Notes: generated from the letters alone by a model not told the origin. 64,000 nucleotides of DNA from Anaerolineales bacterium UBA2200 (GCA_002327925.1 DCVA01000003.1:5809-69808), one strand, 5' to 3'. Shown: positions 52,323-63,177, numbered from the stretch's first letter. Numbers and translations: made by a program.

Positions 52323-53324
52323 CTAAGAGCGAGACTTGGCTTCCAACACCTGTTCGGCCGCCCTGACGATATCCGCCGCTGTGAGCCCGAACTCCTTGAA
52401 CAGCTCGTCGGGATTTCCGGACTCGCCAAAGCGATCCTGAATGCCGATGAAGCGCATAGGCACAGCGTGGGTCTGCACGACAACCTCGGCGACCGCACTG
52501 CCAAATCCGGCTTGCACCTGATGCTCCTCCACCGTGACAATGGCGCCTGTCTCCCGCGCTGCGGCGGCGATGGCCTCTCGGTCAATCGGCTTAACCGTAT
52601 GCATGTTCAGCAGCCGGGCAGAGATGCCCTTTGCCTTGAGTGCCTGAACGGCCTTCATACACTCGTACAGGATTGGCCCGTTGTTGATGATCGTCAGGTC
52701 CTTGCCATCATGGACCAGATTGGCCTTTCCCATCTCAAAGGGGTCCTCCGGCCCGGTGACCATGGGCACTGGCTCGCGGCCAAAGCGGACATAGACAGGT
52801 CCGACATATTTGCAGGCCCAGATAACCGCCTTCTTCGTCTCGTAATAGTCGCAGGGTACGATGACCACCATATTGGGCAGCACGCGCATGGTCGCCACGT
52901 CCTCGAGCGCCTGATGCGTCGCACCGTCCGGGCCAACCGAGATGCCGCCGTGCGCCCCGGCAATCTTGACGTTCAGCTTGCTGTAGCAGGTCGTGGTTCG
53001 GATCTGGTCCCACGCCCGCCCGGCTACGAAGACTCCATAGGTGCTGACCCAGGGGATCTTGCCGGCCAGACTGAGACCCGCTGCCGCGTTAAGCATATTC
53101 TGTTCGGCGATCCCGAACTCGAAGAAGCGCTCCGGATACTTCTTCCAGAACCAGAGCGCTCGCGTCGAGTCGCTCAAGTCCGCACCCAGAACGACGATCC
53201 GCTCGTCCAGCGCTCCCATCTCCACCAGGGCATCGCCGTAGCCATCCCTCGTCGGCTTCCACTTGATTTCTGTCCCATCCAGTTGGGGCTCTGTAGCTGT
53301 CATGATGAGCTCCTTAAAAGTCAA
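52323..53324 (-). CDS. transketolase, C-terminal (pyrimidine-binding) subunit
   Basis: 333 aa with homology to the transketolase C-terminal half. It overlaps the N-terminal subunit gene by 11 nt. Confidence 0.85.
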   Translation of the reverse strand: MTFKELIMTATEPQLDGTEIKWKPTRDGYGDALVEMGALDERIVVLGADLSDSTRALWFWKKYPERFFEFGIAEQNMLNAAAGLSLAGKIPWVSTYGVFVAGRAWDQIRTTTCYSKLNVKIAGAHGGISVGPDGATHQALEDVATMRVLPNMVVIVPCDYYETKKAVIWACKYVGPVYVRFGREPVPMVTGPEDPFEMGKANLVHDGKDLTIINNGPILYECMKAVQALKAKGISARLLNMHTVKPIDREAIAAAARETGAIVTVEEHQVQAGFGSAVAEVVVQTHAVPMRFIGIQDRFGESGNPDELFKEFGLTAADIVRAAEQVLEAKSRS

Positions 53325-54156
53325 AGTACTCGGCCGGGCAGGCCAGTTCCTGCAGGGCCTGGCGCGCCTCGTCCGGCTTGGGGGCCTTGCCGTGCCATTC
53401 GGCGCGGTTCTCCATGAACGAGACTCCTTTCCCCTTGACCGTCTTGGCCAGAATTACCGTTGGCTGACCCTTCGCCAGGGCGGCGCGGTCAAAGGCCTGA
53501 ACGCATTCGGCCATGTTGTGGCCGTCGATCTCGATCACGTTCCAACGGAAGGAACGCCACTTGTCCGCCAGGGGCTGCAGGCCCATGACATCCTCGACCC
53601 AGCCATCGATCTGCAGGCCGTTGTTGTCCAGCACGACACACAGATTGTCGAGCTTGAAGTGCCCGGCCGACATGATGGCCTCCCAGGTCGAACCCTCCTG
53701 GTTCTCCCCGTCGCCCATGATACAGTAGACTCGATTGGGCTTGCCGTCCAGACGCAGTCCGAGAGCCAGACCCACGCCGATGGAAAGACCCTGGCCCAGT
53801 GACCCTGTGCCCACTTCGATCCCCGGACACTCCAGGTTGGGGTGTCCCTGCAGCCGGCTGCCGTACTTGCGGAACGTCTTGAGCTCCTCTCGCTCCAGGT
53901 AGCCGGCCTCGGCCAGCAGAGAGAAGATGAGCGGCGTGACGTGCCCCTTGGAGAAGATGACGCGGTCGCGACCCTCCCAGGTGCATGTGTGCGCCAGGTG
54001 CTTTAGGGTGTGAAAGTACAGCGCGACGCTAAAGTCGGTTGCCGACAGAGACCCTCCCGGGTGCCCGGACTGAGCGTGAACCAGCGCATAGATGATGTCG
54101 CAGCGGACACGCCTGGCAATCTGCTCGAGCTCGGCGATTTTTTCTTGATCCACCAT
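53314..54156 (-). CDS. transketolase, N-terminal (TPP-binding) subunit
   Basis: SGHPGGSLSATD… and the GDG TPP motif. The ATG at 54156 has a GGGAGAGA RBS. The ORF-track extension is rejected. Confidence 0.85.
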   Translation of the reverse strand: MVDQEKIAELEQIARRVRCDIIYALVHAQSGHPGGSLSATDFSVALYFHTLKHLAHTCTWEGRDRVIFSKGHVTPLIFSLLAEAGYLEREELKTFRKYGSRLQGHPNLECPGIEVGTGSLGQGLSIGVGLALGLRLDGKPNRVYCIMGDGENQEGSTWEAIMSAGHFKLDNLCVVLDNNGLQIDGWVEDVMGLQPLADKWRSFRWNVIEIDGHNMAECVQAFDRAALAKGQPTVILAKTVKGKGVSFMENRAEWHGKAPKPDEARQALQELACPAEYFDF

Positions 54157-54170
54157 TCTCTCCCTTCCCT

Positions 54171-55448
54171 TTATTGGTAGACTACCTTTCCCTTCTTGAT
54201 CACGGAATACACGGGATTGGTGCCAAAGCGATAGGCGAGCGACCGGTAGTCGCTTTCGTCCAGGATCACGGCGTCCGCCTGGTAGCCGGGCCACAGTCTG
54301 CCCAGATCCGAGCCCCTGCCAATGGCAAATGCCGCGTTCACTGTGCTGGCCACCAGGGCCTCGGCGGGAGTCAAGTGCATGAAGCGGCAGGCAAGAGCCA
54401 TCACGAAAGGCATGGACTCGCAGTAGCAGGTGCCCGGATTGAGGTCGGTGGCCAGAGCCACGATCATCCCTGCGGCGATCATGCTCCTGGCATCCCCGTA
54501 CTCGTGTAGTCCCAGGCCGAACGGGGTGCCCGGGAGCAGGACCCCGACCACACCCGCGCCGGCCAGGGCCGACATCTCTTGAGATGAGGTATGCAGCAGA
54601 TGCTCGGCCGACACGGCTCTCAGGTCAGCCGCCAACTGTGCCGCACCCAGATGGGCGAACTCGTCAGCGTGTACCTTCAGGCCCAGACCCAGCGAGCGAG
54701 CAGCGCGCAGAATGCGCTCCGTCTGCGAGAGGTCGAACGCCCCTTCATCGCAGAACACGTCGCAGTAGCTCGGCATGGGTGTCGAACCGGTCTGTGAATG
54801 CCTGCCGCTGCCAGTCACTACCGGCAGCATCTCGTGTACCACGAGGTCGACGTACTGCCCGGTTCGACCTGAGAACTCCTCGGGGACAGCGTGGGCTCCC
54901 AGAAAGGTCGGGACCAGCTCGATGGGGCTGCACCGGCTCAGGTGGTGAATGGCCGCCAGGGAGGTTAGCTCATGGTTCGTCGTCAGGCCATAGCCGGTTT
55001 TTGCCTCGACCGTGGTAGTTCCGTGGGCCAGAAAACGCGACAACCGTGGCAGGGCGGCGGACACCAGCTCATCCATCGAGGCGGCGCGAGTAGCCCGCAC
55101 GGTGCTCATAATCCCACCGCCAGAGGCCATGATCTGCTGGTAGGTCGCCCCGCTGAGGCGCTGCTCGAACTCGTTCTGGCGTGAACCGGCAAAGATCAGG
55201 TGAGTGTGGGGATCGATAAAGCCAGGTACCACGGCGCGGCCACCCGCGTCGATCACCTGGCGAGCATCGTAGGACTGGCGAATCTCAGGGGTAGTGCCGA
55301 CGGCAAGGATGGTCTGGCCATCAATCGCCATCGCTCCATTTTCGATAGGACCCAGTTGACCCAGGGCCGGGCCGCGGGCGGGGCCTGCCCCGGACAGCGT
55401 CAGCAGGGCGCTGGCCTTCTCGACGATGCAATCAACCGTCTGGACCAC
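54171..55448 (-). CDS. hutI: imidazolonepropionase
   Basis: Amidohydrolase fold (GFIDPHTHLIFAGSR, KVHADE). 425 aa. Confidence 0.85.
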   Translation of the reverse strand: MVQTVDCIVEKASALLTLSGAGPARGPALGQLGPIENGAMAIDGQTILAVGTTPEIRQSYDARQVIDAGGRAVVPGFIDPHTHLIFAGSRQNEFEQRLSGATYQQIMASGGGIMSTVRATRAASMDELVSAALPRLSRFLAHGTTTVEAKTGYGLTTNHELTSLAAIHHLSRCSPIELVPTFLGAHAVPEEFSGRTGQYVDLVVHEMLPVVTGSGRHSQTGSTPMPSYCDVFCDEGAFDLSQTERILRAARSLGLGLKVHADEFAHLGAAQLAADLRAVSAEHLLHTSSQEMSALAGAGVVGVLLPGTPFGLGLHEYGDARSMIAAGMIVALATDLNPGTCYCESMPFVMALACRFMHLTPAEALVASTVNAAFAIGRGSDLGRLWPGYQADAVILDESDYRSLAYRFGTNPVYSVIKKGKVVYQ

Positions 55449-55570: not shown

Positions 55571-56545
55571 TCAGGCCGGCCTTGTCACCACATAGTCTAC
55601 CATGGCGTAGAGCTCGCCACGTGCAACTCCATCCGGAAATCCGGCCAGAATGGACCTGGCCCGGTCGGCGAAACCGCGTGCTTCATCCATCGCCATCTCG
55701 ACGGATCCGGAGCCGCGGATCGCATCCACGGCCGCCTTGATTGCCGGCTCTCCCCGTTGCCCTTCGAGCACCCGAGTGACCACCTCCGTATTGCGATGCT
55801 GCTCCAGAAACAGCAACACAGGAAGAGTCACCAGCCCCTGTCTCAGGTCACTGCCCGCCGGTTTGCCCAGCGTCACCTCATCTGCGCTGATATCCAGCAC
55901 GTCATCGACCACCTGAAAGGCCATACCGAGCTCGCGCCCGAAGGAGGCCAGAGTGGCCACTGTGGAGTCAACCGCGCCGGCGACCATAGCGGCCATCGCC
56001 GCCGACGCGGCGAACAGGGCAGCCGTCTTGGCCTCTGTGCCAAGGTAGTACTCTTGCTTGCCTTGCACCACGCCGGTCGATCCGAGCGTCTCCCTGATCT
56101 CACCCGCACTAACCCGGCGCAGGCCGTCGGCCAGACTGCGCAGGATGCGAGGGTTTTGCAGCTCTGCGACGAGTGCAACGGACTGGGCGAGCAGGAAATC
56201 GCCGGCCAGGATGGCCACACTGGTCGGCCAGATTGTGTGCAGAGTCGGGTTCCCGCGGCGCAGGTCCGACTGGTCGATGATGTCATCGTGCACCAACGTA
56301 GCGGCGTGCAACAGTTCGATGGCAGCGGCCAGCCGCTGCAGAGGCAAGGAAGGTGCAGAGAACAGTGATCCGGTCAGCAGAACCAGGCCGGCACGCAGAC
56401 GCTTGCCACCCATGAGGTGGGGCTCCAGAGCGGCGCGCAAAGGCTCGTTCGCTGCTGCGATGGCCTCCAGAAGAAGCTGTTCCACCTCCGCCAGCTCTGC
56501 TCGAATGGACCTCAGAGGAATGATGCTGACCGCACTATTCGGCAC
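55571..56545 (-). CDS. polyprenyl diphosphate synthase (trans-IPPS family)
   Basis: First Asp-rich motif LVHDDIIDQSDLRRG and second motif (DDVLD). The start overlaps the radical-SAM stop by 11 nt. Confidence 0.85.
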   Translation of the reverse strand: MPNSAVSIIPLRSIRAELAEVEQLLLEAIAAANEPLRAALEPHLMGGKRLRAGLVLLTGSLFSAPSLPLQRLAAAIELLHAATLVHDDIIDQSDLRRGNPTLHTIWPTSVAILAGDFLLAQSVALVAELQNPRILRSLADGLRRVSAGEIRETLGSTGVVQGKQEYYLGTEAKTAALFAASAAMAAMVAGAVDSTVATLASFGRELGMAFQVVDDVLDISADEVTLGKPAGSDLRQGLVTLPVLLFLEQHRNTEVVTRVLEGQRGEPAIKAAVDAIRGSGSVEMAMDEARGFADRARSILAGFPDGVARGELYAMVDYVVTRPA

Positions 56546-57797
56546 TTGTCACCTCGGCGGAAGCACATGGCTCGAGGAAGCAGAACGGATCCTCGGCAAG
56601 AAGGTCGCCGGTTGTGGCCAGAGCACGGCCGCGGCAGCCTCCACACAAACGACGGTACGTACACCTGCCACAGCGACCGCCAAGACGCGCCTCGCGCTGC
56701 TGCAGGTCCTGGATCACCGCAGAACGGTTCAGAGTATCCAGGAATCCCTCTTCCCGGGCGTCTGCGCAGGCAAGCTCGATAAAGGGGCAGGGCCACACTT
56801 TGCCATTGGGCTTGATGTAGACAAAGCCCCGACCGGCCGAGCACCCGTGAAAGACCCACTCAGCCAGGCGAAGACGATGCCCCGAGCGGATACCTGCACG
56901 CTGCAACAGGAAGGGCCAGTACTGGGGGCCGGCAACTGGCTCCATGATGGCGCGAGCGTCCTCCTGGGCGCGGGCCATGAAGCGGATCAACTTCTCGTTG
57001 GCGCTCAAGTCCAGAGACGCAGCCCCGATGCCCTTCCCACGACCAACAGGCACAAGCTGGTAGAACAGCAGGATGCCCGCACCGAGCGCTTCCACGAGCT
57101 GGACCAGCGGCTCCAACTGGTCCAGATTGTACTCCATGGCCGTGATGTTGACATGAAGAAGGATCCCTGCTTTCCTGAGTGCCCTCATTCCAGCCAGCGC
57201 GGCATCGAAGGCGCCTCGTGACCCCCGGATGCGGTCGTGGCTTGCCGCGTCAAAACCATCGAGGCTCACGGCGGCGATCACAACTCCCTGCCGGTTCAGA
57301 TCACGTGCCACGGCCTCATCGACCAGGGTGGCGTTGGTGGCTATCGTGTTGTTGAAACCGAGCGCATGTGAGTAAGCCAGAAGCTCGAACAGATCTTGCC
57401 GCAACAGCGGTTCACCGCCGGTGAAGGCCATCATGCGGAAATCCGCGTTCGTGGCCAGCTCGTTCAGCATACGCCTCGCCTCAGGCGTGGTGAGCTCGTC
57501 GGCCGAAGGCCTGCCTGCCGAGGTGTGGCAGTGGATGCAGTGCAGATTGCACGCCGTGGTCATTTCCCAGACCGGGTGCGGCGGAAAGCCGATACACCCC
57601 ATTCCTCGCGATCCGGCCGCGCCGGGCAGGCAGCGAAACCCGTAGCGGGCGAACCACCCCGGTATCCCCCTCCAGTGAGCAAGCGCACCCACGTACAGAG
57701 CGCTGGCAGCCTGCCTCAGGATGAGACCTGGCGGCCACCAGTAGGGAGCCACCACCCGCTTCGGACGCGGTCCCCAGGCCTCATCCCACCTGACCAT
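56535..57797 (-). CDS. radical SAM protein with C-terminal SPASM domain and ~60-aa hydrophobic N-terminal extension
   Basis: CNLHCIHC (CxxxCxxC) motif. C-terminal CxxC…CxxxxxC…CGGC SPASM cysteines. The ATG lies 5 nt after the UbiA stop with a GAGGT RBS. Confidence 0.8.
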   Translation of the reverse strand: MVRWDEAWGPRPKRVVAPYWWPPGLILRQAASALYVGALAHWRGIPGWFARYGFRCLPGAAGSRGMGCIGFPPHPVWEMTTACNLHCIHCHTSAGRPSADELTTPEARRMLNELATNADFRMMAFTGGEPLLRQDLFELLAYSHALGFNNTIATNATLVDEAVARDLNRQGVVIAAVSLDGFDAASHDRIRGSRGAFDAALAGMRALRKAGILLHVNITAMEYNLDQLEPLVQLVEALGAGILLFYQLVPVGRGKGIGAASLDLSANEKLIRFMARAQEDARAIMEPVAGPQYWPFLLQRAGIRSGHRLRLAEWVFHGCSAGRGFVYIKPNGKVWPCPFIELACADAREEGFLDTLNRSAVIQDLQQREARLGGRCGRCTYRRLCGGCRGRALATTGDLLAEDPFCFLEPCASAEVTSAE

Positions 57798-57801
57798 CGG
57801 G

Positions 57802-58767
57802 TTACCTCACAAATGCCGGAATGTAAGAAGCGGTCACGCCGAGGTTTATGGCCAGGTTGGCGGCACAGAGACGCTCCAGAGCACGCCGGTCCCGCCAGCG
57901 CCCTGCCAGCACTGCCCCGGTCACCCGGCACGATAGCAGTGCCACAGGTGCCGCAGGAAGCAGGACTACCTTCGGCACACCTCCGGTCAGGGAAGCCAGG
58001 AAGGCAATCCAGGTCCCTACCGAAACCAGCGCGTAGAGCCTGGCCGAACGCTCCAGACCGAGCCGGACGGCAAGGTTGGTCTTGCCGGAAGCCAGGTCGG
58101 CAGCGTGGTCGGGAAACTCGTTGAGCAGAATGACGTTAAAGATGCTCAGCCCGATGGGCAGAGCCACCCAGTGTACCACGTCAGGAACCAGCCCCGTTTG
58201 AAGATAGCACCCGACGGCCACCGGAAGCCAGCCATAGCAGAACGCGATCCACAGCTCGCCCCAGCCCCGCTTGACCCAGCGAACCGGTCCGGTGGAGTAG
58301 AAGAACCCGCCTACGGCCCCCATGGCCCCCAGGGGGAGCGTCCACATCCCTGTGCCATAGACCTGACTAAGCAGCAATCCAACCCCGCCGGCCAGAAGCA
58401 GACACAGCAGCGATGCCCACAGAGCAACCGCACGGGAGAGCAGGCCCCGCTGCACCACCTGCGACCCTCCGGAGAACCGGCTGCCACCGATCTGCCCGGA
58501 CAGGGCATCCTCTGCCACGTCCCAGTACTCCCCCGCATAGTAGGTGGCCAGAAGGATCAAGACCACCCCCAGCACGCCCCAGGCCAGGACCTGCCAGGAA
58601 AAGACCTGCTCCAGGCGCCAGGCGACAAGCGTGCCCAGCAGGAAGGGCAGTATGCCCACGATATGAAAGGGAGGCCTGGACAGAGCTATCCAGGCACGCA
58701 GCTTGCTCATCAGCCATCTCCACCCCAGCACCCTATGGTCCCCAGGCGAACGCGCCGCCAGCGCCAT
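57802..58767 (-). CDS. UbiA family prenyltransferase (integral membrane)
   Basis: 8-9 TM helices. Second motif NEFPDHAAD. The first Asp-rich motif is atypical (EYWDVAED). Confidence 0.75.
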   Translation of the reverse strand: MALAARSPGDHRVLGWRWLMSKLRAWIALSRPPFHIVGILPFLLGTLVAWRLEQVFSWQVLAWGVLGVVLILLATYYAGEYWDVAEDALSGQIGGSRFSGGSQVVQRGLLSRAVALWASLLCLLLAGGVGLLLSQVYGTGMWTLPLGAMGAVGGFFYSTGPVRWVKRGWGELWIAFCYGWLPVAVGCYLQTGLVPDVVHWVALPIGLSIFNVILLNEFPDHAADLASGKTNLAVRLGLERSARLYALVSVGTWIAFLASLTGGVPKVVLLPAAPVALLSCRVTGAVLAGRWRDRRALERLCAANLAINLGVTASYIPAFVR

Positions 58768-58839
58768 GTTGCGGCGGCTGCACTATTGTCGTGCAGAGGT
58801 GCTTCTTTGGCAAACCGCAAAACCGGATCGTATTGTCCT

Positions 58840-58867
58840 TTGACAAACCGGCAGGTCACGGTATAAT
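58840..58867 (+). promoter_or_regulatory. consensus sigma70 promoter TTGACA-N16-TATAAT; predicted TSS at or near ATG 58876 (leaderless GntR transcript candidate)
   Basis: Perfect hexamers seen in sequence. The -10 element ends 8 nt before the second in-frame ATG. Confidence 0.45.
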
Positions 58868-58869
58868 GT

Positions 58870-59682
58870 ATGCAGATGTCTGCAGACAGCGCTCCACTTC
58901 GAGCGGAGGTCAGTCCAACGGAGCACTACAGCCAGGTTGTCGATAAGAGCAGGCCAGAACCCGTCTACGAGCAGATCGCAGACTGGATGACCTACAAGAT
59001 CACGGTCGGCGACTGGCAGAGTAACGACCGTCTCCCTTCCGAGCCGGCGCTGGCTAAAGCCATGGGAGTGAGTCGCAGTTCCCTGCGCAAGGCGATGGCC
59101 AGGTTGACGTCCGCTCACCTCCTCCTTCAGATCCAGGGCAAAGGCACCTTCGTGCGCAGCGAGGCCTTCGAAGGCCGCATGGAACAGCGACTGCGCAGTG
59201 TGACCGAGATCCTCGACGCGGATCACCTGCCGCATAGCACTACCGTGCTCGAGCAGCGTATGGCTGCACCCCCGCCCAAGGTCTGCCTTGTGCTTGGTCT
59301 GCAGCCAGGCGAGTCGGTGTTGTATCTGAAGTGGCTTGTGCATCTGAAGGAGACTCCCTTCCTGTACACGGAGGTATACCTCCCCGGCGAAAGCTGTGCC
59401 ATACTGCTTCACGCGGATCTCACACTGCAGACCGTCTACACTACTCTCGAGCGAGCGGCAGGCATCCGAATCGCGCGCGCGCATGACGTGTTCGCCGCAG
59501 TCTCGGCCCCTTCGGCAGTCGCCCGGCGGCTGGACGTGGAACGCGGCACGCCAACACTCTTCATCGAGCGCACCCTCTTCGATGACCAGGGGCGTAAGGT
59601 CCTTTATGCAGAAACCTGGTCGAGGAGCGATCGCCTGCGCCTGTCCATGGAAAGCTATCGCAAGTCAGACGAAGGCAACTAG
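58870..59682 (+). CDS. GntR family transcriptional regulator, HutC subfamily (UTRA effector domain)
   Basis: HTH PSEPALAKAMGVSRSSLRKAMARL and a C-terminal UTRA-like domain. The start is probably 58876 or later. Confidence 0.8.
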   Translation: MQMSADSAPLRAEVSPTEHYSQVVDKSRPEPVYEQIADWMTYKITVGDWQSNDRLPSEPALAKAMGVSRSSLRKAMARLTSAHLLLQIQGKGTFVRSEAFEGRMEQRLRSVTEILDADHLPHSTTVLEQRMAAPPPKVCLVLGLQPGESVLYLKWLVHLKETPFLYTEVYLPGESCAILLHADLTLQTVYTTLERAAGIRIARAHDVFAAVSAPSAVARRLDVERGTPTLFIERTLFDDQGRKVLYAETWSRSDRLRLSMESYRKSDEGN

Positions 59683-59734: not shown

Positions 59735-60818
59735 TTGGTCGAAGAAGCTCTGACCCTGCTGAACGAGTCACGGCATCACCCCCAGCACCATTCCCACCCA
59801 AGTTCGTGTCCGTCGTGCGGCGCACGGGCCAGACGTATCCCTGTAACCATCATCGGGGGCTTCCTGGGCGCCGGCAAGACCACCCTTCTCACGCACATAT
59901 TGCGCCAGCCGCAACGACCCAGAGCCGAGGTCATCATCCGTGAGTTCAGCGACGTCGGAGTGGATGGCAGACTAATCCCTGAGGGCTCGGCGCGCGTGCA
60001 CGTGGTTTCGGGCGGAAGCCACTTTATCGATCCCCAGACTATCCTCTACTGGAAGCTGAAGGGCCTCTACGAGAACCCCGACAACCGCCAGGGCAGCACT
60101 CCAGATCCGGGGCCGGACTTTGACTACCTTCTTCTCGAAACCAGCGGACTGGACCTGCGAGTTCCTGATCACCCTCTTCTGGCTGGACCCCATGAGAGAC
60201 TACTACCGCCTCGACGGCTGTGTCGTGGTCGTGGATGCCGAGTACGGTGAAGAGAATCTGGATGAGTACCCGGTGGCTGCCGAGCAGGTAGCACTGGCTG
60301 ACCTCATTTTGCTCAACAAGATGGACCTGGTCGATCCTTCGCGTGTCGACCGGCTCCAGCGCAGACTGCAACGCATGAACCCCGTGGCACAGATCATCCG
60401 TACTGAGTACTGCGCCACGGACCTGCACGGGCTCTTGAACGTGCGCCTGTTCGAATCCGTGCCTGCTGCGGCCAAGATGCGTGAAACCGATCCCGATCAG
60501 GATGGGAGAGAGACAGTGGACCGAATTCGCAGCGTCGTGCTGACCGAGCGGCGCCCTCTGGATAAGGACAGGGTCAACCTCTGGATCAAGGACCTCTTCA
60601 TGACCCGCGGCTACAAGATCCTGCGAGGCAAGGGCTTTTTGAACTTTAGCGGGAGCGAGTACCGCTACGTGTTTCAGAGCGTCCGCCGTACTTTTCACTC
60701 GCAGGCGGACCGGCTGTGGCAACCGGACGAACCGCGCGAGAGTGTGATCGTTCTGATCGGCGAAGGGCTTGAAGACCAGACGGTTCTGCAGCAGTCGTTC
60801 AGCGCATGTGTGGCCTGA
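59735..60818 (+). pseudogene. COG0523 (CobW/G3E) family GTPase interrupted by a +1 frameshift near 60154-60160; lacks the canonical GCxCC metal motif; His-rich N-terminus
   Basis: The first frame gives P-loop GGFLGAGKTT…LLLETSGLD. The second frame (+1) continues EFLITLFWLDP…LDGCVVVVDA…LILLNKMDLV and the C-terminal domain. TTG start with an AGAGGAG RBS. Confidence 0.65.
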
Positions 60819-61596: not shown

Positions 61597-63177
61597 ATGG
61601 CAAGTCCAGTCTTCTATATGAATGACCGCGCCAACTCGCTTCCGGAAAGTCTCAAATTCAAAGCGGTCAAGGTATTCCGGGATGCGGGCCTCGGAGAGCT
61701 GTTCAAGCCCGGTGACACGGTAGGCGTCAAGATCCACATGGGCGAATACGGCAACACGATGAACCTCCGGCCGCAGATGATTCGCTCCATCGTGGAAGAG
61801 ATCAAGAAGCTCAAGGGCAAGCCGGTTGTCGTTGATTGCACCACGATCGCCTTCAACGAGTACACATCACGCGGCACCAAAGAGGACATGCTCTGGACTG
61901 CAGCCCGCCATGGCATGACCGAAGAGACGTTGAGCTGCCCGATCTGGGTGTGCGATGGGGACTACGGCCTGGACGACGTCAAGGTCGAAATCCCTCACGG
62001 CACCTTCCTGAAGCACACGTACATGGGCAAGCAGCTCAAGGACCTCGATGCGATGATTGTGGTCACCCACTTCAAAGGGCATCCGATGGGCGTTTTCGGC
62101 GGCGCCATGAAGAACGTGGGCATTGGCTGCGGGTCCAAGCGCGGCAAACTCTGCACGCACCTGCTGAACCATCCGGACTATGGACGCCTTGCCTGGACCG
62201 TGAATCCCAAGGCCGTGGAGGCAGCGCAGCAGGGAGAGAAGCCATCGGTGCTCGACCGGTTCATCTCCAACTGTCCGTTTGGAGCACCCTCGGTAAAGGA
62301 CGGCGTGTTCCAGACCGACACGGATCGCTGCCATCAGTGCGCAAGCTGCTTCGGCCCGGCGCTCTTCTCGGGGATTCTCGCGCCCCCTCCCGAGATCATG
62401 CGGTTCTGGGCCATCACCATCCCTGATGCATTCTCCGGCTACGTCCATGCCATCGGCAAGAACAAGGTTGGCTACGTCACCTATGGCATAGACATCACAC
62501 CCTGGTGCGATTGCGTCAACTTCCACGACCGCCAGCTGGTTCCCAATATGGGCGTCTTTGCCTCCAAGGATCCAGTAGCCATCGACATGGCCTGCCTGGA
62601 GATGGCGGAGGCATCCGCCGGCATGCCCGGCTCCAAGGCAGACGACTTTGGCTTCGGCGACCCAGGCACAGAGCGCTTCACCAACCTCAGCAGTATGGCC
62701 ACGGTCAGCCAGTGGGCGCAGATCCACTCGGGCATCTACAACGGTCTGGGAACGTCAGAGTATGAACTGATAACCTCCAAGCCGGCGCCGGAGTTCGACT
62801 TCTGGATGCCCAAGTACAGCCCGGAAAAACCGTGGGGCCTGGTGAACCGCAAGGGCCTGCACGGCGGCGAGTGGAAGCCCGAGTATCCGTACACCCACGA
62901 CCGACCCAAGATCTCCCTGGCCGAGGCGAGCCTCAAGCCCAAGGGCAAGGCCAGCGAGCGCGAACTCCAAGCCGGAGACAGGCTCGCTGCGCAGGCCGCA
63001 AGCAGAGAGAGCCGCGAGCCGCGAAAACGAAACGGAGGAAATGATGAACGGCGGATATGTCGGAAAGATGCTCTTTGTGGACCTCAGCAAGGGCACCACA
63101 GAGACTCAGGAGCTAACGGAAGGCCTGGCCAAGAATTTCATCGGTGGCTACGGCATCGGGGCCCGGGTACTCTATGA
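61597..63177 (+). CDS. DUF362 family protein (putative Fe-S/ferredoxin-like); C-terminal ~50 aa and the 137-nt overlap with the next gene are doubtful
   Basis: RBS AAAGGAG. DUF362-like N-terminal region (GDTVGVKIHMGEYGN) and cysteine clusters (CHQCASC, CDC). The tail is Arg-rich, as expected for out-of-frame high-GC sequence. Confidence 0.65.
   Translation: MASPVFYMNDRANSLPESLKFKAVKVFRDAGLGELFKPGDTVGVKIHMGEYGNTMNLRPQMIRSIVEEIKKLKGKPVVVDCTTIAFNEYTSRGTKEDMLWTAARHGMTEETLSCPIWVCDGDYGLDDVKVEIPHGTFLKHTYMGKQLKDLDAMIVVTHFKGHPMGVFGGAMKNVGIGCGSKRGKLCTHLLNHPDYGRLAWTVNPKAVEAAQQGEKPSVLDRFISNCPFGAPSVKDGVFQTDTDRCHQCASCFGPALFSGILAPPPEIMRFWAITIPDAFSGYVHAIGKNKVGYVTYGIDITPWCDCVNFHDRQLVPNMGVFASKDPVAIDMACLEMAEASAGMPGSKADDFGFGDPGTERFTNLSSMATVSQWAQIHSGIYNGLGTSEYELITSKPAPEFDFWMPKYSPEKPWGLVNRKGLHGGEWKPEYPYTHDRPKISLAEASLKPKGKASERELQAGDRLAAQAASRESREPRKRNGGNDERRICRKDALCGPQQGHHRDSGANGRPGQEFHRWLRHRGPGTL

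Follow-up and report, generated by a model that had tools for sequence, protein, structure and literature searches.

In the futalosine pathway the radical SAM (S-adenosylmethionine) enzymes MqnE and MqnC work with the UbiA-type prenyltransferase MqnP to yield an isoprenoid quinone. Tes/GDGT-MAS and other lipid-modifying radical SAM enzymes possess additional iron-sulfur clusters and have membrane isoprenoids as their substrates. NirJ and MftC are, like AhbD, oxidative decarboxylases. AhbD decarboxylates the propionates of Fe-coproporphyrin III (PMC8305020). A three-gene cassette that draws on the same superfamilies is found on the minus strand of a 64-kb stretch of DNA from Anaerolineales bacterium UBA2200 (GCA_002327925.1 DCVA01000003.1:5809-69808; the whole stretch of 64,000 nucleotides is referred to here as the window). 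It encodes a UbiA-family prenyltransferase (57802-58710; PF01040), a radical SAM enzyme with a SPASM domain (56535-57797; PF04055 and PF13186) and a trans-polyprenyl diphosphate synthase (55571-56545; PF00348). These are known enzyme superfamilies in an uncharacterized arrangement that is widely distributed, crosses the boundary between bacteria and archaea and fits no characterized pathway. Full-text literature searches found no paper on a pair formed by a UbiA-type prenyltransferase and a SPASM radical SAM enzyme.

The futalosine pathway resembles the chemistry proposed below in combining anaerobe-compatible radical SAM modification of a head group with a UbiA-superfamily prenyltransferase to give an isoprenoid quinone. 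It differs in that MqnC and MqnE have no SPASM domain and belong to another radical SAM subgroup, and in that two or three genes seemingly suffice here. The original prediction for this DNA had already separated the radical SAM enzyme from MqnC and MqnE, and this distinction stands: the SPASM domain is present, and no Mqn model occurs among the best 25 NCBIfam matches listed for the protein.

Conservation and Co-evolution of the Pair

A comparative scan limited to one genome per species yielded 65 related loci, every one of them in a metagenome-assembled genome (MAG). The bacterial loci belong to Anaerolineae/Chloroflexota, WOR-3, Planctomycetes, Clostridia/Moorellales, Dethiobacter, Kapaibacterium and Auribacterota, and the archaeal loci to Methanomicrobia/Halobacteriota, Bathyarchaeia and Hermodarchaeota. 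Wherever at least 900 nt of upstream DNA is available, the radical SAM gene is immediately preceded by the UbiA gene (53/53 loci), and the intergenic gap is typically a few nucleotides. The pairwise identities of the two proteins are strongly correlated (r=0.93, Mantel p=0.001, 36 loci). Prenyltransferase and radical SAM enzyme form an obligate, co-evolving pair, and the adjacency together with the co-evolution rules out a chance or stray-neighbor origin of the radical SAM gene. The view that the genes are a functional unit is thus borne out by synteny conserved across bacteria and archaea and by the correlated divergence of the pair. A polyprenyl synthase gene follows within 600 nt downstream of the radical SAM gene in 30 of 49 loci.

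Between bacteria and archaea the radical SAM enzymes share 47-83% identity (mean 69%) and the prenyltransferases 38-70%, a pattern that indicates strong constraint plus horizontal transfer. The radical SAM enzyme of the window is about 70% identical to archaeal copies, including those of L001/L014 on chromosome OY970258. This chromosome is a closed 2.58-Mb archaeal genome encoding an LSM protein, so the archaeal copies are not binning artefacts and transfer between the domains is implied. The flanks of the cassette differ completely from lineage to lineage, which indicates that the pair is a self-contained module needing no other dedicated local gene.

Two candidates for an additional linked function were considered and set aside. 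Class I methyltransferase genes occur near a few loci and are consistent only in three related archaeal MAGs. In L028, L029, L033, L035, L039 and L053 the cassette has, on its upstream side, one gene for a DUF362 iron-sulfur protein and another for an NAD-dependent epimerase, and remote DUF362 genes are also found near it in L013, L030, L070 and the window (61597-63177). The arrangement is syntenic within one Anaerolineae clade only, with scattered remote matches elsewhere, and probably reflects lineage synteny rather than a functional link.

Operon Structure in the Window

The stop codon of the UbiA gene (57802-57804) is separated from the radical SAM ATG (57797) by a 4-nt spacer (57798-57801). 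The synthase begins with a GTG inside the 3′ end of the radical SAM gene, and the two genes share the last 11 nt of the latter, stop codon included (56535-56545). The original prediction of three coupled genes on the minus strand is matched in position and in Pfam domains. Its 11-nt overlap is likewise found in the sequence, which gives 4 nt in place of the 5-nt gap it had counted. For the UbiA gene the longest open reading frame (ORF) extends to 58767 and would encode 321 aa, but the ATG at 58710 (302 aa) is the better start, since public gene calls (P0236) and orthologue alignments begin there and a GGAG sits 9-12 nt 5′ of it. The radical SAM and synthase starts each have a GAGG 7-11 nt 5′. 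A candidate operon promoter, TTGCCA-17 nt-GACAAT, lies upstream at 58785-58813 on the minus strand. It is a match to a consensus pattern only, and the scan for this consensus gave 5 sites against 0.6 expected in shuffled sequence. No terminator was detected for the cassette in the window, and Rfam recorded no riboswitch near the operon, the only match having E=0.33. The tight spacing, the ribosome-site-like motif before each start and the promoter-like site upstream suggest that the three genes plausibly form one operon, and from their junctions they are translationally coupled.

The Prenyltransferase

The UbiA-family protein scores 89.6 bits against PF01040 (gathering score 34.2). Its best NCBIfam matches are MenA models, at 87.4 bits against a cut-off of 264 and, for TIGR00751, 56.4 bits against a cut-off of 102.15. 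Its sole sequence match in the PDB is UBIAD1 (E=3e-4). The AlphaFold2 (AF2) model is confident (mean predicted local distance difference test, pLDDT, 91) and shows an all-helical UbiA fold with template modeling (TM) scores of 0.64-0.71 to DGGGPS, UBIAD1, AfUbiA and ApUbiA. Among PDB folds it is matched best by DGGGPS, an archaeal lipid synthase (6m31, E=8e-7). Searches of PDB folds confirmed the folds of both the prenyltransferase and the radical SAM enzyme without discriminating between substrates. Among NCBIfam families there are weak matches to ChlG (E=3e-7) and BchK (E=5e-5), with a Kapaibacterium member reaching E=3e-11, but no match to heme O synthase (CtaB) or to DGGGPS at E≤0.001, and no Mqn model among all 11 matches. 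When the protein is classified among the UbiA clades, as the original prediction had proposed, both the NCBIfam ranking and the PDB sequence match place it on the MenA/UBIAD1 side.

Both motifs for diphosphate and Mg2+ are preserved in the protein, the first of them in altered form. The two Asp-rich motifs expected of MenA are N-D-x-x-D-x-x-x-D and D-x-x-x-D. The second Asp-rich motif is canonical (NEFPDHAAD followed by GK; 58096-58122, minus strand) and aligns with NEYRDINHD of MenA, with N197, E198, D201, D205 and K210 invariant. The first is a variant, GEYWDVAED (58507-58533, minus strand), where MenA-type enzymes have NDYFD. It keeps its carboxylates while the MenA-type Asn and Asp are replaced. 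E61, D64, E67 and D68 do not vary among 45 close orthologues. The closer orthologues carry GEYWDxxED, and GEYFD, GEYHD and GEIHD are among the variants of distant members. The atypical first motif that had drawn attention to this protein is therefore genuine and is conserved across the closer orthologues.

One alternative interpretation is a menaquinone-type enzyme. UbiA would then be MenA, the synthase would make the tail of an ordinary menaquinone, and the radical SAM gene would be an unrelated neighbor or a mis-annotated heme synthase. The annotations of the Joint Genome Institute (JGI) agree with this, since they label the orthologues 1,4-dihydroxy-2-naphthoate octaprenyltransferase and some of the radical SAM proteins AdoMet-dependent heme synthase, and MenA models are indeed the best matches. 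The protein also shares with MenA and UBIAD1 the UbiA fold, the canonical second Asp-rich motif with its GK and a long-chain trans-synthase as partner. Unlike MenA, however, it has the conserved GEYWDxxED motif, scores far under every MenA cut-off and lies outside any men or mqn context. There are no men, mqn, heme or tetrapyrrole genes in the 64-kb window. In a Dethiobacter MAG (L063:5754-10517) a polyprenyl synthase gene is followed by the genes for the new prenyltransferase, the radical SAM enzyme and a genuine MenA. This MenA passes TIGR00751 (141 bits against the cut-off of 102) and has NDYFDFLNGVD at the position of the variant motif. It is the only locus seen that physically ties the cassette to menaquinone synthesis, and the coexistence of a genuine MenA means that the new prenyltransferase is not MenA, though it lies near quinone metabolism there. 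With the MenA cut-offs missed, a separate MenA in Dethiobacter and an invariant pairing that excludes a chance neighbor, the identification of UbiA as simple MenA beside an unrelated radical SAM gene fails, and ordinary menaquinone synthesis is very improbable. By its sequence relationships, the prenyltransferase represents a MenA/UBIAD1-like yet distinct subfamily of the UbiA superfamily.

The Polyprenyl Diphosphate Synthase

The synthase comprises 324 aa from its GTG start and scores 209 bits against PF00348. Its two Asp-rich motifs are DDIID (56273-56287) and DDVLD (55892-55906), both on the minus strand. The sequence LHAATLVH directly precedes DDIID and places small residues at positions -4 and -5. 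Small residues before the first DDxxD mark long-chain synthases such as IspB and HepT, and they are found in every bacterial synthase orthologue beside the cassette. With the PF00348 match, two DDxxD motifs and these small residues, the enzyme is classified as a medium- or long-chain trans type. No product-specific NCBIfam model for chain length reaches its cut-off; the scores are 225 bits for HepT (cut-off 457), 213 for solanesyl diphosphate synthase (383), 150 for the octaprenyl model (412) and 193 for the hexaprenyl large subunit, which is also below its cut-off. In the archaeal loci the pair is accompanied by a dedicated synthase that is shorter, at about 286 aa. Archaea produce C20 lipid precursors anyway, and the presence of a dedicated enzyme in spite of this argues for a special chain length.

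The Radical SAM/SPASM Enzyme

The radical SAM enzyme is a protein of 420 aa with a radical SAM domain (PF04055, 88.8 bits against 29.5) and a SPASM domain (PF13186, 26.8 against 21.5). The motif C83-N-L-H-C87-I-H-C90 (57528-57551, minus strand) is of the CX3CX2C type, its three cysteines are invariant, and it binds the SAM-cleaving [4Fe-4S] cluster. The SPASM region (56580-56843, minus strand), defined by PF13186 and by invariant columns, contains seven invariant cysteines (C319, C337, C376, C379, C385, C388 and C406), for which the sequence reads C-x12-G-x4-C ... C-x2-C-x5-C-x2-C ... C. It would be expected to hold two auxiliary [4Fe-4S] clusters. The predicted SPASM domain is thus confirmed by a score above the cut-off and by a complete seven-cysteine motif. 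All invariant columns of the enzyme were derived from 37 sequences of 42-72% identity.

Classification with hidden Markov models (HMMs) assigns the enzyme to the AhbD/NirJ-like group, one of the outcomes that the original prediction had envisaged. The highest NCBIfam scores are those of AhbD (TIGR04545, 276.3 bits against a cut-off of 500), NirJ2 (255 against 500) and TIGR04053 (240 against 395). AhbC, NirJ1, NirJ and MftC follow, and peptide maturases rank lower than AhbD. Two other family members score 274 and 308 bits with the AhbD model, and two divergent members recover the same three top families, with AhbD first for the archaeal protein and NirJ2 slightly ahead for that of Kapaibacterium. 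The protein shares with AhbD, NirJ2 and TIGR04053 the CX3CX2C radical SAM core and the full seven-cysteine SPASM domain, and these relationships suggest a new subfamily beside the three. The cassette is no known defence system; the sole PADLOC match is one of the generic radical SAM core to prokaryotic viperins (70 bits).

The protein also has a family-specific N-terminal extension of 76 residues (57570-57797, minus strand), which carries invariant columns. Its conserved positions are Q29, W42, W48, G62, G65-M-G-C68-I-G70, H74 and W77-E78, which include the motif GMGCIGFP (57582-57605, minus strand). Every NCBIfam model begins to align at residue 66-81, and the extension is missing from AhbD-like and AhbC-like comparison proteins. 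When used alone as a query against 1.84 billion representative proteins it returned 24 matches, nearly all at the N-terminus; two long proteins among them show only a weak, internal alignment. The extension is modeled at pLDDT 76-95. It has no transmembrane helix (the highest mean Kyte-Doolittle hydropathy over 19 residues is 0.99) and weak amphipathicity. An N-terminal extension of about 60 aa had been predicted, and its existence is upheld by the conserved residues and by the point at which the models start, but a role as a membrane anchor is not. The extension is instead a hallmark of this radical SAM family.

Many SPASM enzymes are peptide maturases, and the AF2 model of the enzyme (pLDDT 91) has SkfB, PqqE, SuiB, BlsE and anSME as its best solved folds, with SkfB, PqqE, SuiB and CteB-type enzymes among the nearest. 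This raises the possibility that the cassette matures a ribosomally synthesized and post-translationally modified peptide (RiPP), which the SPASM enzyme would modify and the prenyltransferase lipidate. The junctions of 4 nt and -11 nt leave no conserved small ORF in the cassette, and none lies beside it. The only conserved small gene encodes a polytopic membrane protein, and peptide-maturase models score below AhbD. The extension is not a recognizable RiPP recognition element, since it is rich in Trp and Gly and no model covers it. A peptide maturase with its precursor, which the original prediction had named as a competing outcome, finds neither a precursor peptide nor a recognition element at the cassette, and RiPP maturation is extremely unlikely.

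The relationship to AhbD brings another alternative into play. The radical SAM enzyme could make a porphyrin vinyl group in the manner of AhbD, and the UbiA enzyme could alkylate this vinyl or esterify a propionate, giving anaerobes a lipid-anchored heme-like cofactor by the logic of heme O and chlorophyll synthases. The best HMMs of the radical SAM enzyme (AhbD, NirJ2, AhbC, NirJ1 and NirJ) all describe enzymes acting on tetrapyrrole side chains. Heme O and chlorophyll synthases belong to the UbiA superfamily, and weak matches to ChlG and BchK are recorded for the prenyltransferase. Formation of a vinyl followed by prenylation is moreover the known order from heme b to heme O, and a sequence of AhbD and heme O synthase (CtaB/COX10) would share the logic of vinyl formation by radical SAM decarboxylation and subsequent prenylation by a UbiA-superfamily enzyme. 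The cassette departs from this model in several respects. The prenyltransferase has no detectable affinity to CtaB and is best matched by MenA models, and the adjacent synthases are of the long-chain type and not C15 or C20 enzymes. There are no linked tetrapyrrole genes, and ahbA, ahbB and ahbC are absent from the window and from the annotated flanks of related loci. A near-genuine AhbD behaves differently: a comparison protein from an Armatimonadota MAG, which reaches 490 of the 500 bits of the AhbD cut-off and is 31% identical to the radical SAM enzyme of the window, is encoded next to an AhbC-like protein (607 bits, cut-off 650; L068:7905-10225), and L069 is similar. These tandem genes represent genuine enzymes of the siroheme pathway in the comparison. 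Where this AhbD-like protein has TCAPHY, with an extra cysteine, the cassette family has VAGPQYW. Unlike AhbD, then, the enzyme of the window lies far under the cut-off, carries the 76-aa extension with its invariant GMGCIG, is without one cysteine of the AhbD-like protein and belongs to a family in which a prenyltransferase is the constant partner and ahbA, ahbB or ahbC have never been seen alongside. Tetrapyrrole lipidation is considered unlikely on these grounds.

An INSIG-like Partner in Related Loci

In 27 of the 49 loci with sufficient DNA, a small membrane-protein gene (about 105-130 aa) lies in divergent orientation immediately 5′ of the prenyltransferase gene; examples, all on the minus strand, are L002:1522-1899, L028:6588-6899 and L014:6596-6892. 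It is absent from the 64-kb window. Its invariant polar residues (W36-H37, E56, N69-P70 and R92) lie inside hydrophobic, predicted membrane segments, and a PWFP is also invariant. The profile of the family matches INSIG-2 (E=1.9e-5), INSIG (3.2e-5) and the mycobacterial MvINS homologue 4xu4 (7.5e-3). Pfam reports DUF2878 in 21 of 22 members and DUF817 in 15 of 22, all below the gathering scores. The protein differs from INSIG in being about half the size and in aligning only to INSIG residues 128-210, and it is likely to be a lipid-binding accessory protein. In related loci the region upstream of the prenyltransferase seemed to hold a conserved ORF on both strands, which resembled a structured RNA. 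A conserved RNA was rejected, as Rfam gives only one tRNA in one locus and six-frame translation reveals the membrane-protein gene on the opposite strand. Animal INSIG and UBIAD1 both bind HMG-CoA reductase (cf. the title of PDB 8djk). An INSIG-like protein beside a UBIAD1-like prenyltransferase echoes this animal circuit of INSIG, UBIAD1 and HMG-CoA reductase.

This probably lipid-binding, INSIG-like membrane protein is a frequent partner of the pair, which speaks for a further alternative, in which the cassette remodels membrane lipids. A DGGGPS-like reaction would form an ether lipid, and the radical SAM enzyme would then introduce C-C bonds, rings or bridges as Tes/GDGT-MAS and Grs do. The top fold match of the prenyltransferase (6m31), the occurrence of the cassette in archaea and bacteria alike and the aromatic-rich extension of the radical SAM enzyme are all compatible with such a role. 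The HMM searches of the prenyltransferase, however, retrieve no DGGGPS at the threshold given above, and the similarity to GDGT-MAS (7tol) is confined to the radical SAM core (E=5.6e-5, residues 78-183 only; Foldseek rank 50, TM score 0.41). The analogy with Tes and Grs that had been drawn for this enzyme is not supported, because only the generic core matches GDGT-MAS by sequence and by fold. Archaeal hosts would already possess DGGGPS and geranylgeranyl diphosphate (GGPP) synthase, whereas the cassette brings its own, different synthase even in archaea. A long-chain synthase also suits quinone tails better than bilayer lipids. Membrane-lipid remodeling is thus a doubtful explanation, to be given little weight.

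Proposed Function and Mechanism

The reading preferred here, which is judged about as easy to defend as to doubt, is that the cassette suffices by itself, and without oxygen, for making a small molecule of the membrane that bears a long polyprenyl chain. The synthase, the class of which is established, would build an all-trans polyprenyl diphosphate that is probably longer than C20. The MenA/UBIAD1-like prenyltransferase, again secure as to enzyme class, would move this chain to an acceptor, most likely an aromatic, carboxylate-bearing head group other than 1,4-dihydroxy-2-naphthoate itself. Either before or after prenylation, the AhbD-like radical SAM enzyme may oxidize the head group by means of a 5′-deoxyadenosyl radical. 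By analogy with its nearest characterized relatives AhbD, NirJ and MftC, this reaction would most likely be an oxidative decarboxylation of a side chain. The N-terminal extension probably serves as a substrate lid or as a docking surface for the prenyltransferase, and its invariant Cys68 may act as a cluster ligand in place of one that AhbD-like proteins have at another position. The expected product would be a quinone-like or otherwise redox-active lipid. Of the interpretation first offered for this locus, the general idea that a SPASM radical SAM enzyme modifies a prenylated lipid or cofactor is supported, and the likeness to Tes and Grs is not; nor is a membrane-anchoring role of the extension.

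Several points weigh against this proposal. About 40% of the loci are without an adjacent synthase, and no gene for the synthesis, methylation or hydroxylation of a head group is conserved near the cassette loci. The absence of men and mqn genes applies to the window, and that of ahb genes to the window and the annotated flanks of related loci. The analogy on which decarboxylation is based is weak, since SPASM enzymes at about 30% identity often differ in substrate. An aromatic acceptor is likewise only a candidate, since the fold of the prenyltransferase matches DGGGPS as well as UBIAD1. Finally, all members of the family come from uncultured organisms.

A farther-reaching version of the proposal can be put forward only tentatively. 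The cassette would be the core of an unrecognized anaerobic pathway to a new polyprenylated redox lipid or cofactor, spread horizontally between uncultured anaerobic bacteria and archaea, in which head-group formation and tail attachment are the joint work of the MenA-like prenyltransferase and the AhbD-like radical SAM enzyme.

Neighboring Genes

The window is ordinary bacterial housekeeping DNA. Downstream of the cassette lie hutI and a split transketolase, with N- and C-terminal halves encoded by separate genes (52323-55448, minus strand), an odd grouping. The hutI gene encodes a genuine imidazolonepropionase (452 bits, cut-off 298) and has its own promoter-like site (55507-55479, minus strand). 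Neither it nor the split transketolase is conserved with the cassette, and both were rejected as parts of it.

On the other side lies a divergent gene for a GntR/UTRA regulator (58870-59682, plus strand), which is not a conserved neighbor of the cassette in other loci. Its annotated ATG follows 3 nt after the end of a perfect sigma-70 consensus (TTGACA, 16 nt, TATAAT; 58840-58870, plus strand), which leaves two readings, a leaderless transcript or a true start further downstream. A CobW-type G3E GTPase is encoded in two overlapping ORFs (59735-60250 and 60120-60818, plus strand). For identical contigs the public gene calls disagree (171+208 aa in one case, a single protein of 232 aa in the other), which suggests a frameshift or a pseudogene.

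Implications

The automatic labels of MenA and AdoMet-dependent heme synthase that the cassette genes carry are probably wrong, and genes mislabeled in this way could mislead metabolic reconstructions of the host organisms. Isoprenoid quinones and related lipid cofactors define respiration, and they are used as biomarkers in taxonomy and geochemistry. Among the carriers of the cassette are many lineages, including Anaerolineae, WOR-3, Bathyarchaeia and Asgard-related archaea, that abound in sediments, peat and digesters, are uncultured and have poorly known membrane electron carriers. At about 3.2 kb the cassette is a clonable starting point in the search for a novel lipid or cofactor and for an undescribed radical SAM reaction. 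Should the proposal of a new anaerobic pathway prove true, it could give membrane electron carriers to lineages that are thought to be without quinones.

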